Positions 2,488 to 26,463 of a DNA stretch of 33,640 nt are shown here, piece after piece (position 1 is the first letter of the stretch; every line of letters starts with the position of its first letter). A program made the translations under genes and the position numbers. The stretch lies in the UHGV virus genome UHGV-0206080; one strand, given 5' to 3'. Under the pieces are notes generated by a model that saw nothing but the letters and a program-made list of their open reading frames with translations, did no database searches and was not told the DNA's origin. This DNA comes from a virus.

Positions 2488-3703
2488 TGCTCTGTTCAGA
2501 AGTAAATCACTGGAGAATCCTTCCACCCCGATAACCGGGGATGCCGTTGATACTGATGGGCTGTTCCGGGCAGACGTTTATGTCAGTCCTGAAACTGCGA
2601 TGAAACTGGCTGCGGTGTATTCCTGTATCTATGTCCTGTCTTCCAGCCTTGCCCAGATGCCGTTGCATGTTATGCGCAGGCACAATGGGAAGGTTGAGCC
2701 CGCACGCGATCATCCGGCGTTTTATCTGGTTCATGATGAGCCCAATACCTGGCAAACCAGTTACAAATGGCGCGAACTGAAGCAACGTCACATCCTTGGC
2801 TGGGGAAATGGGTATACCTGGGTGAAACGTAATCGTCGCGGTGAAGTCATATCCCTGGATTGCTGTATGCCGTGGGAAACGACGCTGATGAATACTGGTG
2901 GCCGATACACCTACGGTTTGTACAACGAATATGGGGCGTTTGCGATCAGCCCCGACGATATGATCCACATCCGTGCGCTGGGTAATAATCAGAAGATGGG
3001 GCTTAGTCCGATTATGCAACATGCCGAAACAATAGGCATGGGGATGAGCGGTCAGAAATACACAGAAAGCTTCTTCAGCGGTAATGCCCGTCCGGCGGGG
3101 ATAGTATCCGTTAAAAGCGGACTCAATAAGGACAGCTGGGGCTGGCTTAAAGATCAGTGGCAGAAGGCATCGCAGGCGTTACGCAGCCAGGAAAACAAAA
3201 CCATGCTGCTGCCAGCCGATCTGGATTACAAGGCACTGACTGTGTCGCCAGTTGACGCTCAAATCATTGACATGATGAAACTGAACCGTTCAATGATTGC
3301 CGGTATTTTCAATATTCCTGCGCACATGATTAATGACCTGGAAAAAGCCACATTTTCGAATATTACACAGCAGGCGATTCAGTTTGTTCGCTACACGATG
3401 ATGCCCTGGGTTGCGAACTGGGAGCAGGAGCTTAACCGTCGCCTGTTTACCCGTACAGAACGGGCTGCCGGGTATTACGTTCGTTTCAACCTCACGGGGT
3501 TGCTCCGTGGGACCCCACAGGAGCGTGCGCAGTTCTATCACTTTGCCATTACAGATGGCTGGATGAGCCGGAATGAAGCGAGGGCATTTGAGGACATGAA
3601 CCCGGTTGATGGTCTGGATGAAATGCTGGTCAGCGTAAATGCAGCAAATCCGTTGAATGATTTTAAAGATACGAAAGGCAAAGAGGAAAAGAACGATGAA
3701 TGA
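2477..3703 (+). CDS. Portal protein (HK97 family)
   Basis: 408 aa; GTG start at 2477 preceded by AAGGGGGG; position between terminase and prohead protease. Confidence 0.85.
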   Translation: MLLDALFRSKSLENPSTPITGDAVDTDGLFRADVYVSPETAMKLAAVYSCIYVLSSSLAQMPLHVMRRHNGKVEPARDHPAFYLVHDEPNTWQTSYKWRELKQRHILGWGNGYTWVKRNRRGEVISLDCCMPWETTLMNTGGRYTYGLYNEYGAFAISPDDMIHIRALGNNQKMGLSPIMQHAETIGMGMSGQKYTESFFSGNARPAGIVSVKSGLNKDSWGWLKDQWQKASQALRSQENKTMLLPADLDYKALTVSPVDAQIIDMMKLNRSMIAGIFNIPAHMINDLEKATFSNITQQAIQFVRYTMMPWVANWEQELNRRLFTRTERAAGYYVRFNLTGLLRGTPQERAQFYHFAITDGWMSRNEARAFEDMNPVDGLDEMLVSVNAANPLNDFKDTKGKEEKNDE

Positions 3704-4295
3704 CCGTGAGACGCGCTGTTACAGCGGGGAAGTGCGGGCAGAACAATATGATAATGCCCCGACCCACATTCTGGGGTATGGCTCGGTATTTAACAGTCGT
3801 TCAGAACCTCTGTGGGGATTTCGTGAAATCATCAAGCCGGGGGCTTTTGACGATGTACTGAATGATGATGTACGTGGCTTGTTTAATCATGATCCTAATT
3901 TCATTCTCGGACGAAGTTCTGCCGGCACGTTGTCATTGTCGGTGGATGAACGCGGTTTACGTTATGACATTGTTGCACCGGATACTCCGACTATTTGTGA
4001 CCTGGTGCTGTCTCCAATGTTGCGTGGTGACATTAATCAGTCCTCGTTCGCGTTTCGTGTCGCCCGTGACGGAGAGAGCTGGTATGAAGACGACGAGGGG
4101 ATTGTTATCCGGGAAATCACGCGCATTTCTCGTCTGTATGATGTCAGCCCGGTGACATATCCGGCCTATCAGGACGCAGACTCTGGTGTCCGCTCAATGA
4201 AAGCCTGGCAGGAAGCGCGGGCGAGTGGTGCGCTGAAGAAAGCTGTTAACGAACGAATGGCGCGTGAGCGCCTTTTGACCCTTCTTAATGCATAA
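3696..4295 (+). CDS. Prohead protease (HK97 family)
   Basis: ATG at 3696 with GAGGAAAA RBS, overlapping portal stop; ORF 3657..4295 immediately upstream of major capsid gene. Confidence 0.8.
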   Translation: MNDRETRCYSGEVRAEQYDNAPTHILGYGSVFNSRSEPLWGFREIIKPGAFDDVLNDDVRGLFNHDPNFILGRSSAGTLSLSVDERGLRYDIVAPDTPTICDLVLSPMLRGDINQSSFAFRVARDGESWYEDDEGIVIREITRISRLYDVSPVTYPAYQDADSGVRSMKAWQEARASGALKKAVNERMARERLLTLLNA

Positions 4296-21854: not shown

Positions 21855-24326
21855 TTAAAAATCAGCCTGACTCGGGATCAGTTTTTGCCAGATAGCTGAA
21901 ACGTATTTTGCCTGGTAACGGGCGTCATCAAGTGCATTATGGCGCTCACCTTCGAATGGAATAGCCGTTCTGGCATCGAAGTCTATGGCTTTCCCCAGCT
22001 CAACGATTGTGCGTACATCGCGATCGTTGTAGTAACGCCACGGGCAGGGGATCCCCTGCCGTTCGTATGAACGGCGCAAAATTGTGTTGTCGAAGTTGGC
22101 TCCATTTCCCCAGACCTGAACAAAAAATTCACCGGAGTTTTCGTCGATAAATTCCCGCAATTGTAACAGTGCATCATCTAACGGGATTTCATCGGTCATA
22201 ATGGCAGATTGCGCCTCCCGTGATTGCTTAAGCCACCATTTAATGGTGCCACGATCAATGACTCCGCCAGCAGTATCCATATCGATGGTCTTACTAAATT
22301 CCGGCCCCATATCTCCGGTTTGCGGATCGAAAAATATTGCACCTATTGAGATAAGCGGGGCATCGGGATTTTTTCCCATGGTTTCAAGGTCGATCATCAT
22401 GTGGTGCCACATTCTGCTGGTGGATGTGATTTTATGATGACCGTTCATGGTAATTAAGGGATTTGCCGTCCCGCCAGCTTCATTATCGCTGGTGTGATGC
22501 TGATTACCGTCAGCGTTCTCTTTGTGCGGATATTCAACACGTTCCATTTCCTCCGGATCATTTTCCTGAACTTCAACCTGATTCTCTTCATTGAATGTTT
22601 CCTGGTATGTTGCGTCACCCATCACCGCGCCACAATCAGGGCTGTTGCCGCCACCGCTTTGACCGCAGGCGGTGCAGACTTTTTCCGGTTCCTGTTGCGC
22701 TACTGGCTCAGGTTGTTTCGTTTCTGGCTCGTTTTGTTGCGTATTTGGGCTGTTTTGTTCCGCTTTCTGGTCGTTCTGTTCCGATTCTTGCTGGTTCTGG
22801 TTTACAGAATCGCGGGTTTCAATCCCCTTTACCCATTTCGGATCATTCGGGTCGCTAATCCCTGCAACAAATTCTCCGCGAGAGGCAGCAAGCAACTTAT
22901 CGGCGTCAGGCTGGCTGATATTAGCTGCCTGCATAATTTTGTTTACTTCGTCAGCGGTAACTTTTACCGGCTCTGGTTGTGCGGTCGTGTCAGATGCACC
23001 AGTATTTTGTTGTGAACCTGAGTACGTGCCGTTTTTACGTGCGAAGTATTCCTCTTTTGTGATTTCCGTAGCTCCCAAGGCTAGTGCTTTTTCCAGACCA
23101 GAAAGTTTGTTTGCGCGACCGTATTTTTCGCCATCCTTGTCGGTGAAGAGGAAGTAGAACGGCCCCTCACGCTCTACAGATGGTTCGACTTCCACTTTGC
23201 ATTCGGTTTTTTCGTTGTCCGGAATTGCCGTTTCCACTGCATCAGTTTCTGGTACTGGCGACGAGAGAGTATCAGTTGCGCTCTGATTTCTTCCTTCATC
23301 TTCAAACACGCCCTTTGTAGTCAGGTATTCAGTAATGTATTTGTTCAGTGCCACAGGGTCTTTGTGAATGTCGATCGGACGTTCACGGACAAGGCCAAAA
23401 ATAGTCTGGCGGTCGTAGCGAAGGACATCAGGCTGTTTGCGCATTGATGCCGAGATACGCTTCCAGTCTTCGCGGTCGTTGTCGATAACTTCATTTTTTG
23501 CCCAGCGATGGATGCTGCCGTCAATGTTTCCGGTATCAATATCGCCAGGCCAGAGAGCGTAGGCCAGTTCTTCATCCAGCGTTTTCCATGTCTGCTTGTA
23601 TTCGCGACAAATGGCGGCAGTGACTGGGTTGATTTTTCCTGCTGAGTTTTCAGTGTTCTGTTGATTGACTCTGGCGCTGGCGAGATCAACAACAGACGTG
23701 TATTTTCCAGTCTCTTTGCGCTCTGCGTCCTGCCGTTTTTTCCAGTTACGTAATTCAGCCTGAATTTCGGGCCATTTGGCACCCGGATTACATTTGTGTT
23801 TAACCCATCCGATAGCGAACAGTTTGCGTTCCGGATACATAGCGTTAATTTCAGGCGTTTTCATCAGTGCTTCAACGATATGCCCGTCAAAGGTAGCAAC
23901 GTCTTCCTGCAGTAATTCCTGCGCGTCAATCGCCATATCAACGGTGATGTTTTCACATGTACCGAACTTAACCAGGACCGCGTTCTGTACTTCAAGGGAC
24001 AGCTTGTCAAAATTGACGTTCATCGGATCGGATTCTGGTTCGACCGGAATAAAGGAAGCGGATTCCTCATCCCAGCGGTTTTCCTGCATATATTCAGCAT
24101 CCCAGGAATCGAGGGCAGGGCGGGGTATACCGGGTTTATCCTCGCAGACAAGAAATTTATAAGCGCAGTCCTGAGCAGCCGGATAATGTTCCAGGAATTG
24201 CCAGTGAAATTTTGCGCGGGCGCGACGTTCATCACCGGCTTCAATGGCAGTGGCTACAGCGACGGCACCTTCTTCCTTTATTGCCTGTTCGTCCGGAATG
24301 GCGGCGCAAATAAAGACTTTACTCAT
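21855..24326 (-). CDS. Exonuclease: RecE-like N-terminal/middle region fused to a C-terminal DnaQ-like DEDDh 3'-5' exonuclease domain
   Basis: 823 aa; C-terminal motifs MIDLETMG, WGNGANFDN, HNALDDARYQ; KLLAASRGEFVAGISDPNDPKWVKGI segment recalled from RecE-family proteins; Q/E/N-rich linker. Confidence 0.75.
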   Translation of the reverse strand: MSKVFICAAIPDEQAIKEEGAVAVATAIEAGDERRARAKFHWQFLEHYPAAQDCAYKFLVCEDKPGIPRPALDSWDAEYMQENRWDEESASFIPVEPESDPMNVNFDKLSLEVQNAVLVKFGTCENITVDMAIDAQELLQEDVATFDGHIVEALMKTPEINAMYPERKLFAIGWVKHKCNPGAKWPEIQAELRNWKKRQDAERKETGKYTSVVDLASARVNQQNTENSAGKINPVTAAICREYKQTWKTLDEELAYALWPGDIDTGNIDGSIHRWAKNEVIDNDREDWKRISASMRKQPDVLRYDRQTIFGLVRERPIDIHKDPVALNKYITEYLTTKGVFEDEGRNQSATDTLSSPVPETDAVETAIPDNEKTECKVEVEPSVEREGPFYFLFTDKDGEKYGRANKLSGLEKALALGATEITKEEYFARKNGTYSGSQQNTGASDTTAQPEPVKVTADEVNKIMQAANISQPDADKLLAASRGEFVAGISDPNDPKWVKGIETRDSVNQNQQESEQNDQKAEQNSPNTQQNEPETKQPEPVAQQEPEKVCTACGQSGGGNSPDCGAVMGDATYQETFNEENQVEVQENDPEEMERVEYPHKENADGNQHHTSDNEAGGTANPLITMNGHHKITSTSRMWHHMMIDLETMGKNPDAPLISIGAIFFDPQTGDMGPEFSKTIDMDTAGGVIDRGTIKWWLKQSREAQSAIMTDEIPLDDALLQLREFIDENSGEFFVQVWGNGANFDNTILRRSYERQGIPCPWRYYNDRDVRTIVELGKAIDFDARTAIPFEGERHNALDDARYQAKYVSAIWQKLIPSQADF

Positions 24327-24421: not shown

Positions 24422-24610
24422 TTATCCAGCCGGTATTTCGTTATTCAGGTTCAGCGATACTTTTTTTAACGGGAGGCATTCACCGGGGATTTTTTGTTCG
24501 TCCCTTACCTGAATGCAGGATGACTTACTGTCATAAATTCCGGTAATCACATTTTGTGGCTCACCCGTTATAAGAAAAACGGTCATCACCAGTGCAAATG
24601 CTGAAGTCAC
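24422..24610 (-). CDS. Small protein with hydrophobic N-terminus (62 aa)
   Basis: GTG start preceded by GGAGA; translationally coupled to upstream gene; N-terminus MTSAFALVMTVFLITG. Confidence 0.4.
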   Translation of the reverse strand: MTSAFALVMTVFLITGEPQNVITGIYDSKSSCIQVRDEQKIPGECLPLKKVSLNLNNEIPAG

Positions 24611-24795
24611 TGCTGTTCTCCGATAATACCAAGTTCAAGAAGGGCAATTCTGGAAAGTATGGAATTATCATTGAGAAGATAAGGTTCATATTTTCTCATC
24701 TTAATGGCATCTTCCGTAAACTCCCGGTTACTGAGCAGAACACCAATATCAAAACAACCTTCAGACGTATTAACGTTTGGTAATAACGTTTCCAT
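24607..24795 (-). CDS. Small hypothetical protein (62 aa from ATG at 24795; alternative GTG start at 24900 gives 97 aa)
   Basis: ATG at 24795 has GAGGA RBS 7 nt upstream; the GTG at 24900 has no SD. Confidence 0.4.
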   Translation of the reverse strand: METLLPNVNTSEGCFDIGVLLSNREFTEDAIKMRKYEPYLLNDNSILSRIALLELGIIGEQQ

Positions 24796-25327
24796 TATCG
24801 CGTCCTCAACAATGAATTTTGTGATGCGGTGCCTGGTGCCTCCAGGTGACGTTAACCAGTTAACAATTAACGCCGGATACAGAGAATCCACCCATAACAC
24901 TGTTTTTGGTTTTAACTGTTCCGCGTGCGCTCAGCCGCATTCACCACATCACAAAATTCACTTTAAAAAGGGCGGCAGAGCAGTCACGGAGTAAAACTGA
25001 TACCGCCAAACGTCACCAGAAAATTGATAACAGAGGGCGTTGCAGCGGGGTTGTCACTTAAGCGTATGGTCAACCTGACAACCCGGTGTCCTCAGCGGGG
25101 GAAGGAATAACCCCGCCATACTTACCGCCGCGCCATTTCGCGGATTGCCACAACCGGAAGCGCACGATCGAATTAAATTTAACGACGACCTATACAGAGA
25201 GACTAACTTCTCCGGGCGCTTTCGTGTTATGCCCTGACTTTTCAGGGATATATCCTTTTCAGTAAACTGTCAGTGCCGGATTCTTATCCGTGTCCGGCGC
25301 ACGCACTCTACCTCACCTGTGAATAAA

Positions 25328-25702
25328 TTAATGATTAATCGATATTTTGTTGTTTGATTCAACTTTCCCATCGGATGTGTGATGCTTTAAATCACAGGAA
25401 TTAATACTGCTTGCTGTAAAATGATTTTCAAGGGGAGCTATTCGAATCCCTTTCTTTTTCATTAACAAGCCAAATCCTTTATTAATGATGTCCATTAATT
25501 CCAGAAAGTATTTTTCATGTAAATCCTGGTTATCAGAGAGCTGCTTCTCTTCGTACAGCCCGATAAAGGCTCGGCGTACGTTACCGGATATATTGTCGAT
25601 GGTTTCTTTTTCTACGGTACTCAGGTCAAGAGTCGCCAGTTGAGAGCGAACCACATTCGATGCCATTTCCTGGAATGGTACTGGTAAATCTTTAAATTCC
25701 AT
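25328..25702 (-). CDS. Hypothetical protein (about 124 aa), AT-rich accessory gene
   Basis: ATG at 25702 with GAGG SD; ORF 25328..25714; coupled to the 85-aa gene upstream. Confidence 0.5.
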   Translation of the reverse strand: MEFKDLPVPFQEMASNVVRSQLATLDLSTVEKETIDNISGNVRRAFIGLYEEKQLSDNQDLHEKYFLELMDIINKGFGLLMKKKGIRIAPLENHFTASSINSCDLKHHTSDGKVESNNKISINH

Positions 25703-25713
25703 CGTCAACCTCA

Positions 25714-25971
25714 TCAGTCGGAGTTTCTTGCTAACCAGCGATGCGCGCCAGCTTCGGTTTTAAACGTTTTGCTTTTGGTATACGTCATGGCGGTGAATGT
25801 GCCGTCCTGGTTGGGGAACACACCACATACCAGAGATTCGCTGTTGCCAAGATCGATAGTATCCATGCTGACCTCATTACCCCTTAACGCCGGGTAGCGG
25901 AACTGTTTGCTGAGAACACCGTGCGGTGTCTTGATGGGTGGTAATTTAGTTTTCTCATGAATGTCGGTCAA
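25714..25971 (-). CDS. Hypothetical protein (85 aa; TTG start, internal Met at residue 36)
   Basis: First gene leftward of the repressor; stop overlaps start of the next gene (TGATG). Confidence 0.4.
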   Translation of the reverse strand: MTDIHEKTKLPPIKTPHGVLSKQFRYPALRGNEVSMDTIDLGNSESLVCGVFPNQDGTFTAMTYTKSKTFKTEAGAHRWLARNSD

Positions 25972-26055: not shown

Positions 26056-26463
26056 TTACTGATGTTTGTTACGTTTGCGAGCTTCTAGTAGCTCGGTGAA
26101 TAGGCGATTAAAATTCTCAACGCGGGCACGGAGTTCGCTGATTTGTGCTTGCTGCTCTGATTTTGGAAGTGCGCGATACAATCGCAACATCTCCAACTCA
26201 TCTTCCGATAAGTCTAAGGCGCTGTTGAGTGCTACTGGTGGATCTGGTGTTTTATCCTCGTCACCAAACAGTATCCAAGTTGGTGAACATTGCAATACCT
26301 CAGCCAGGCGATGCAAATTTTGCCCGCGCGGGGCTGTATGGTCGCTTTCCCATAGTGAAATTGATGAGCCAGATACGCCAGCGGCTTTGCTTAAATCGTT
26401 TTGACTTAAACCAACCTGTTTGCGTCTTTCTCTAATTCGTTGACCTAAAGTTTTCTCGTTCAT
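26056..26463 (-). CDS. dicA: DicA-like HTH (XRE-family) phage repressor
   Basis: 135 aa; close match in length and sequence to recalled E. coli Qin DicA (..GERIRxRRK...QCSPTWILFGDEDK...RARVxNFNxLFxELLxAR..). Confidence 0.85.
   Translation of the reverse strand: MNEKTLGQRIRERRKQVGLSQNDLSKAAGVSGSSISLWESDHTAPRGQNLHRLAEVLQCSPTWILFGDEDKTPDPPVALNSALDLSEDELEMLRLYRALPKSEQQAQISELRARVENFNRLFTELLEARKRNKHQ

Follow-up and report, generated by a model that had tools for sequence, protein, structure and literature searches.

DicF is among the oldest bacterial small RNAs (sRNAs) known, and it ties prophage induction to cell division, sugar metabolism and the virulence of enterohemorrhagic Escherichia coli. 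In E. coli K-12, DicF pairs with ftsZ messenger RNA (mRNA) and with the xylR, pykA and manX mRNAs in an Hfq-dependent manner (PMC5069750; PMC10448788); RNase E generates its 5' end, and either Rho-independent termination or RNase III its 3' end (PMC5069750; PMC9438474). The RNA accumulates as species of 53 and 190 nucleotides (nt), the longer of which is gone without RNase III, rises upon inactivation of RNase E, is stable and builds up in stationary phase (Ragunathan et al. 2023, PMC10448788); a long DicF of 190 nt is also credited to Faubladier et al. 1990 (as cited in PMC10448788). K-12 transcripts of the operon include one of 1,146 nt that ends at DicF and one of 1,608 nt that reads through to ydfD (PMC10448788). 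Long DicF has been treated, in the literature searched, as a processing intermediate. The stretch considered here, an intergenic gap in the virus genome UHGV-0206080 (33,640 nt, called the window below), is very probably an untranslated RNA cassette in the early-left (PL-equivalent) operon, of the dicBF type, of a lambdoid E. coli prophage. The locus as such is a known system, that of DicF; the fold of the domain lying 5' to the sRNA (module A), the spread of that domain independently of DicF, and a covarying helix for RNase III (P0) appear to be undescribed.

A scan of the entire window with Rfam at gathering thresholds gave two matches, sok and DicF. The DicF match (RF00039; 25021-24970, minus strand) scores 76.7 bits against a gathering score of 48 (E = 1.9e-15) and covers model positions 1-52 of 52, and both its sequence and its score are those of E. 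coli K-12 dicF. By this sequence comparison, the GGCGG...CCGCC element followed by TTTTT is the DicF sRNA. Nucleotides 1-14 are predicted to be unpaired and are followed by a hairpin of -15.9 kcal/mol and then UUUUU; the GGCGGUA...UGCCGCC hairpin with the adjoining CUUUUU has the form of an intrinsic terminator, which a simple terminator scanner (loop 3-8) overlooked owing to the long apical part. The surroundings are those expected of DicF as well: the element lies in a lambdoid prophage, between small ydf-type open reading frames (ORFs) and dicB and with a DicA/C2-type repressor, and it is flanked by the Pfam domains HTH_3, P22_Cro, DUF1391, DicB and DUF1482 in synteny with the cryptic prophage Qin. 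A preliminary description of the sequence had proposed N-type nut sites and internal terminators or, alternatively, a phage sRNA, and had suggested an Rfam search; the sRNA alternative was the correct one, and that search returned DicF. Its internal terminators survive in part, the DicF hairpin being one, through which transcription must pass to reach dicB, and the remaining GC-rich hairpins being arms of a single larger conserved fold. Recognition of DicF dissolves the apparent mystery of the stretch.

The gene order of the window (repressor, DUF1391 gene, 128-amino-acid ORF, gap, dicB, DUF1482 gene, exonuclease) matches the dicBF layout of Qin in K-12, in which repressor, small ORFs, a long untranslated region, dicF, dicB, ydfD and exonuclease follow one another in the same way; DicF is identical in the two, and the spacer of about 300 nt upstream of dicF is 90-95% identical. 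They differ in the upstream ORFs, which are ydfA-ydfB-ydfC in Qin and the DUF1391 gene plus the 128-amino-acid ORF in the window, and in the left arm, which is disrupted by IS2 in Qin and apparently intact here (full-length exonuclease). Of 5426 complete E. coli genomes, 4556 carry the 427-base-pair (bp) stretch of the window, the median copy number being two. On the gene (minus) strand the non-coding gap spans 24796-25327, from the stop of the 128-amino-acid ORF (25328) to the start of dicB, whose ATG is placed at 24795 by the sequence and by the RefSeq annotation of a 100% identical prophage; a listed 97-amino-acid GTG ORF is an upstream extension of the 62-amino-acid DicB. The structured non-coding stretch, which the preliminary description had drawn at 24901-25327, is therefore real and wider than was thought. 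It had been called GC-rich, full of hairpins and free of sizeable gene-strand ORFs, and so it proved: the only such ORFs in the interval have 31 and 33 amino acids, the GC fraction is 0.55-0.56 across 25000-25224 vs. 0.31-0.45 in the flanks, and all four hairpins were found where they had been placed. Folding energy is moderately unusual only, with z = -2.9 for a stretch of 371 nt and z-scores of -1.3 to -2.5 for individual elements, so the functional case rests on comparative evidence, the decisive parts of which are the gathering-score match to DicF and the covarying pairs in the element upstream of it.

This upstream element, module A, is a conserved structured RNA of 122 nt. On comparative sequence evidence, the two GC-rich hairpins at 25046-25117 are arms of one four-way-junction RNA with a pseudoknot, made up of a closing helix P1 (GGUUGUGGC/GCUGCAAC), a hairpin P2, a helix P3 (CGGU/ACCG) with an internal loop, and a helix P4 (CGGGGTTGTCA/TGACAACCCGG). 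The apical hairpin of P3 is the GCGGGG/CCCCGC hairpin of the preliminary description and is highly variable in sequence among relatives; the apex of P4 is almost invariant, and the loops and junctions of the module are nearly so. Minimum-energy folding of the single sequence gives the same four-way junction. In an alignment of 29 representatives made with MAFFT only, 93.8% of cells are paired and 11 pairs show two-sided change, a degree of pairing reached by 0 of 500 shuffles and to be compared with 32-57% in slid controls; for 59 distinct sequences, in an alignment fitted to the covariance model and hence biased towards structure, the values are 95.1% and 15 pairs. The pseudoknot joins GUAUGG of the P3 internal loop to CCAUAC of the P4 loop (98.9% paired) and is represented by the compensatory GCAUGG/CCAUGC in the lineage of phage P1. 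The covariance model built for module A (R1) detects a single copy in the window and, in 91 of 98 loci, one each, and no second, PR-side copy was found with it in either. Module A is absent from Rfam 15, no Rfam family matched 25022-25330 at E <= 10, and no mention of it was found in the literature searched; older papers outside that literature may hold earlier descriptions. A tRNA-like four-way junction was rejected, since ARAGORN finds nothing in 24500-25600; a riboswitch-like exclusive pairing between module A and the terminator was likewise rejected, inspection of the alignments having revealed no complementarity consistent across lineages with differing terminators.

Whether the stretch could instead be a degenerate gene with frameshifts can be judged from the same alignments. 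Hypothetical proteins are annotated there in some phage records, mostly on the opposite strand, and one antisense frame is open in 37 of the 59 variants, but all three gene-strand frames carry stops in at least 57 of them, the lengths of the variants (118-127 nt) do not differ by multiples of three, substitutions in the helices are compensatory, and the K-12 annotation over the orthologous stretch holds dicF alone; a lost gene is scarcely credible. The question posed at the outset, of conserved RNA or decayed gene, is answered in favor of RNA.

BLAST comparison with phages showed the region to be modular, a piece of about 120 nt (about 25154-25031) recurring without DicF. Module A stands without DicF in Stx2c-converting phages, in phage cdtI, Ayreon, 2H10 and a Salmonella phage, and in P1 and P7, in which the C1-controlled ban operon carries it in its leader. 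Prophages of Enterobacterales are among its carriers: when one genome per species was scanned for its pattern, matches came from Escherichia, Shigella, Citrobacter, Trabulsiella, Erwinia tracheiphila and Izhakiella. It is present in 66 phage records and in 511 plasmid records (apparently mostly P1-like), and IMG/VR scans for the pattern gave at least 120 matches. In 85 of 85 distinct flanks, module A is followed within 150 nt by a hairpin of -8 kcal/mol or better and a T-run. This hairpin is DicF in Qin-type prophages and a different one elsewhere, often with the same GGCGG/CCGCC base and unseen by the DicF model; in P1 and P7 the terminator hairpin is unrelated to DicF. Conversely, no intact module A accompanies the DicF-like RNAs (35-41 bits) of Rac-type phages and of the N-encoding phages POCJ13 and phiSTEC1589, in which it is reduced to the 3' half of P4. 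DicF and module A are therefore separable, because each occurs without the other.

R1 detects module A (89 bits) in the 'dicF-like region' of phage P1 (AF234173 68472-68573, ban leader), where an intrinsic terminator comes after it. The region lies downstream of the C1-controlled Pban, and a leader resembling the STnc100 RNA precedes tciA further on. In contrast to the window, P1 has no DicF (no Rfam match at E <= 0.01), a different terminator hairpin, no P0 and another closing-helix sequence. Across the ban leader (L003, AF234173 65920-71014), the elements stand in the same order as in lambdoid dicBF (24796-25157), with tRNA genes inserted, which suggests, as far as sequence arrangement goes, that P1-like and lambdoid phages share an early-operon module of common ancestry. 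Four contigs of metagenome-assembled genomes (L023, L024, L029 and L027, labeled Bacillota, Veillonella parvula, Collinsella and soil proteobacterial) are near-identical to E. coli Qin- or P1-type DNA and are most likely products of mis-binning or contamination; the early region of 'Actinobacillus phage vB_Apl-pPE4' (L008) is E. coli-like.

At the 5' edge of module A lies the helix P0, in which, in every lambdoid lineage, a segment of the upstream leader is complementary to a strand made up of the conserved GUGCKCU motif and the 5' strand of helix P1. In the window P0 has 18 bp and -23.7 kcal/mol (K-12, -29.4 kcal/mol). All 34 distinct lambdoid variants have it, at lengths of 17-20 bp and energies of -23.7 to -37.4 kcal/mol, and it shows two-sided changes at six or more positions, its strands reading AAAGCGCACGG/CCGUGCGCUU in Qin-type loci, GAGAGCAUUG/CAGUGCUCUC in Salmonella and Erwinia, and AAGAGCAUUC/GAGUGCUCUU in Trabulsiella. 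Measured against shuffled controls in 10 representative lambdoid lineages, its z-score ranges from -1.8 (this window) to -6.5. In phage P1, folding revealed no significant P0, and module A begins about 30 nt after the start of Pban, as placed from the annotated P1ban -10 signal. Natural deletions in L042 (about 1633-1754; IMG/VR 2654588054_000006), L021 and L090 remove the 3' strand of P0 together with the 5' strand of P1 and fuse the boxB-like hairpin (see below), its stem being the compensatory CUCUGA/UCAGAG, or other sequence directly to P2, the rest of module A and DicF being kept.

Transcript ends, the mapping of which had been named as a check in the preliminary description, do fall here in the K-12 orthologue: two 5' ends, one made by RNase III and one by RNase E, and a 3' end at the terminator (PMC10448788). 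A count of 190 nt from the DicF 3' end (24970) reaches back to 25159, 2 nt upstream of the R1 match. Because this count ends so close to module A, we infer that the published long DicF consists of module A, the 12-nt linker and DicF, an assignment made from lengths, the cut nucleotide itself being published in a figure; the three parts add up to 188-190 nt, both RNAs end at the DicF terminator, and the 5' boundary coincides with a predicted duplex of about 20 bp that is fit for RNase III. P0 would then be the RNase III substrate, position 25159 falling inside its downstream strand. The RNase E site would lie in the linker, judging from the K-12 dicF annotation and published work (PMC5069750; PMC10448788). 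The conserved unit would thus be a discrete RNA of about 170-200 nt, with a 5' end set by RNase III or by initiation and a 3' end set by a terminator. Like SroC, CpxQ and MicL, DicF is freed by RNase E from a polycistronic mRNA and ends at an intrinsic terminator (PMC9438474); unlike them, it is preceded, 5' of the RNase E site, by an extensive conserved structured domain and a predicted RNase III helix. The segment AGCGCACG (24931-24924, minus strand), downstream of DicF, is perfectly complementary to CGUGCGCU (25161-25168, minus strand) at the 5' edge of module A, and AGAGCAU vs. GUGCUCU stand at the corresponding places in the Stx2c, Salmonella and Erwinia lineages. It is a weak possibility, drawn from one compensatory difference between two lineages, that AGCGCACG and the GUGCGCU motif form a bracket helix in read-through transcripts; the segment can alternatively pair locally inside the STnc100-like leader.

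In the scheme proposed here, transcription would start at a repressor-controlled promoter and pass through two small ORFs, the leader, module A, the linker and DicF with its own terminator, and polymerases that read through would continue into the dicB leader, dicB, the ydfD-like gene, the exonuclease gene, xis and int. P0 would exclude helix P1; since the two helices use the same strand, cleavage of P0 by RNase III would free the 5' strand of P1 and allow module A to close, and RNase E would release the 53-nt DicF from the resulting 190-nt RNA. Module A may then serve as a folded 5' body that hides the 5' monophosphate and sets both the stability of the long RNA and the rate of RNase E release of the seed-plus-terminator part, the favored one of the roles considered, put forward tentatively. 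Several points weigh against it. DicF biogenesis does not require module A, because Rac-type and N-encoding phages have DicF-like sRNAs in its absence. Conservation is higher in module A than in the adjoining sRNA, and the module contains a pseudoknot, all of which is excessive for a protective 5' domain; an additional function is likely, because its conservation exceeds what the role of a 5' body needs. The function assigned to module A is one that we infer, the RNase III cut is placed from the length of about 190 nt rather than by a mapped nucleotide, the pairs of P0 come from per-sequence energy minimization, which favors pairing, and the P0 of this window is the weakest variant. The element in phage P1, which lacks P0 and lies near the Pban start, is consistent with initiation and RNase III being alternative ways of setting the 5' end of a discrete RNA.

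Another function is suggested by analogy with the put RNAs of HK022 and HK639, which are structured RNAs in the early operons of N-less lambdoid phages, upstream of terminators. A mark of HK022-type put is terminator read-through dependent on the RNA and on the zinc-binding domain of the RNA polymerase β' subunit; early antitermination in N-less lambdoid phages is acknowledged as an open question (PMC12315714). Module A, likewise placed in an early operon upstream of terminators in a phage without N, might be a protein-independent cis-acting RNA that controls elongation, as HK022 put and Bacillus EAR do, and that takes the place of N and nut by modifying RNA polymerase, part of which would then read through the DicF terminator and later ones into dicB, exo, xis and int. 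The operons that carry module A are always early and under repressor control, with an intrinsic terminator beyond the module, an N-like gene is absent from every module-A phage inspected, and the N-encoding phages POCJ13 and phiSTEC1589 keep a DicF-like RNA with module A lost or truncated. The near-invariant loops and junctions and the pseudoknot suggest binding to a conserved host machine, and read-through transcripts are known in K-12 (PMC10448788). However, put RNAs have two stem-loops of about 70 nt, whereas module A is a 122-nt four-way junction with a pseudoknot; put sites occur in both early operons (putL and putR), whereas module A is present in a single copy per phage, with none on the PR side. 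With filters off, R1 gave no match at E <= 10 to HK022 putL or putR or to the putL-like RNA of HK639, and a 9-mer common to the put region and the window (GCGCGGCGG) is within chance expectation. Rac-type N-less phages lack module A, and the discrete limits of the RNA, the conserved P0 on the 5' side and the terminator on the 3' side, are indicative of processing. Membership of module A in the put family was rejected on the missing R1 match, the single copy and the Rac-type phages, and an antiterminating role in general is somewhat doubtful. The same doubt attaches to the wider proposal that module A is a new phage regulatory RNA family, namely a put-unrelated antiterminator for N-less lambdoid phages and the P1 ban operon with P0 as its folding switch.

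The discrete ends also bear on a further possibility, that module A with its terminator acts in trans as an independent structured RNA of about 170-200 nt, produced in the early lytic phase, which binds or titrates a host or phage protein and to which DicF is a lineage-specific 3' addition. The ends are conserved, in contrast to the 3' seed region, which differs from lineage to lineage; the 190-nt species is stable and builds up in stationary phase; and the fold is complex and conserved. On the other side, module A resembles no Rfam family and has no partner on record, and the present data do not separate a trans from a cis role. Such an RNA is unlikely.

The remaining proposal of the preliminary description, that the hairpins are N-type nut sites (boxB) with internal terminators read through by N-like antitermination, is very improbable. 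The resemblance to λ nut consists in the position in a PL operon and in the string CCCUGAAAA, which the hairpin CCCUGA-AAAG-UCAGGG shares with boxB; CCCUGAAAAG matches 9 nt of the λ nutR boxB, and the DicF hairpin is a genuine internal terminator. However, the hairpin has a 6-bp stem and an AAAG tetraloop in place of the 5-bp stem and GNRA-like pentaloop of boxB, its 3' side overlaps the upstream strand of P0, and no boxA (CGCUCUUA-like) adjoins it, the sequence on its 5' side reading ACUGAAAAGGAUAUAU. It lies outside the widely conserved part; the commonest (K-12 Qin) variant, CCCUGA/UCAGAC, is left with 4 bp, and L042 has CUCUGA/UCAGAG while a sister lineage has a different hairpin there. 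The sole boxA-like motif is 70 nt downstream of the hairpin and covaries as a helix strand; reading this GUGCKCU motif as boxA was dropped, since it covaries with the upstream complementary segment in P0. No N-family protein was found by Pfam or PHROGs among the proteins of the operon, the N protein of POCJ13 serving as a positive control that matched phrog_271, so that the earlier remark that no N-like protein is evident holds, and the nut sites themselves do not.

Positions of the features discussed are collected in Table 1. The candidate early-left promoter sits just downstream of the repressor gene, at a position that matches that of K-12 Qin dicBp between dicA and ydfA. RefSeq gives 50 amino acids for the DUF1391 gene in the identical prophage; the 128-amino-acid ORF has no Pfam family and is annotated in NZ_CP029579 as a hypothetical protein. 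A hairpin just 3' of its stop, GCCGGA/UCCGGC (-11.4 kcal/mol, z = -2.5), keeps its stem among Qin-type relatives, in which differences are confined to the loop. dicB, annotated as such in RefSeq, is the first gene beyond the DicF terminator and is followed by the DUF1482 (ydfD-like) gene and then by the exonuclease gene (Pfam and PHROGs). In the 823-amino-acid exonuclease (21855-24326, minus strand), the Rv2179c-like 3'-5' exonuclease domain is limited to residues 642-813, and the roughly 640 residues before it include a long acidic, Q/E/P-rich low-complexity stretch with no Pfam match. The spacer between dicF and dicB aligns over its full length with STnc100 (RF02076) at 38.7 bits, below the gathering score of 47 (E = 2e-06), and similar sub-threshold matches lie upstream of kil in Rac-type phages and of tciA in P1 and D6; judging from these positions, small genes for cell division or toxicity may have STnc100-like RNAs as their 5' leaders, in which case these RNAs would not be independent sRNAs. 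The second gathering-threshold match of the window, to the sok antitoxin RNA (RF01794; 32413-32584, plus strand; 106.7 bits vs. a gathering score of 59), indicates a probable hok/sok-type toxin-antitoxin locus near its right end. In Stx2c/Ayreon-type phages, adjoining matches to C4 antisense RNA (RF01695) and IsrK (RF01394) lie on the opposite side of the immunity region.

Table 1. Features of the dicBF-type stretch and related loci (window coordinates unless a locus is named).
Feature	Position	Strand	Remarks
HTH_3 repressor gene (Pfam)	26056-26463		divergent from P22_Cro-type gene
Candidate early-left promoter (PL/dicBp equivalent), TTGACC-17-TAAATT	25943-25971	minus	consensus scan only
ydfA-like gene (DUF1391)	25714-25866	minus	Pfam E = 7.6e-28
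128-amino-acid ORF	25328-25714	minus	phrog_6937, E = 1.8e-76; stop is upstream border of gap
Hairpin GCCGGA-loop-UCCGGC	25275-25298	minus	directly 3' of ORF stop; lineage-specific leader
boxB-like hairpin CCCUGA-AAAG-UCAGGG (DNA: CCCTGA-AAAG-TCAGGG)	25232-25247	minus	-9.2 kcal/mol, z = -2.5
P0 upstream strand, GGGCAUAACACGAAAGCGCCCGGA	25211-25234	minus	25234-25211 pairs with 25167-25146
P0 downstream strand, UCGUGCGCUUCCGGUUGUGGCA	25146-25167	minus	holds GUGCGCU motif and P1 5' strand
Module A (conserved 122-nt structured RNA)	25035-25157	minus	covariance model R1, 142 bits
Hairpin GCGGGG/CCCCGC	25095-25116	minus	apical hairpin of P3
Hairpin CGGGGTTGTCA/TGACAACCCGG	25046-25086	minus	P4
A/U-rich single-stranded linker, CUCUGUUAUCAA	25023-25034	minus	putative RNase E-dependent 5' processing site
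DicF sRNA (53 nt)	25022-24970	minus	terminator hairpin and U tail (24969-24965)
Hairpin GGCGG...CCGCC	24970-25007	minus	UUUUU next, 24969-24965
dicB 5' leader, STnc100-like	24796-24964	minus	conserved structured region
dicB (cell-division inhibitor)	24607-24795	minus	Pfam DicB E = 3.7e-38; full length, 62 amino acids
STnc100-like leader, window	24763-24972	minus
STnc100-like leader, L003 (P1)	3842-3961
STnc100-like leader, L005 (D6)	2501-2621
STnc100-like leader, L176 (Rac-SA53)	3534-3723
STnc100-like leader, L178	3508-3694
C4 and IsrK matches, L004	538-726
C4 and IsrK matches, L174	2040-2228

The 5' two-thirds of the known 190-nt DicF precursor is thus a deeply conserved, covarying fold that travels independently of DicF. 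If module A controls processing, it would exemplify how a structured domain and an RNase III switch can jointly govern sRNA release; should it act on transcription, it would be relevant to how N-less lambdoid phages express their delayed-early genes.

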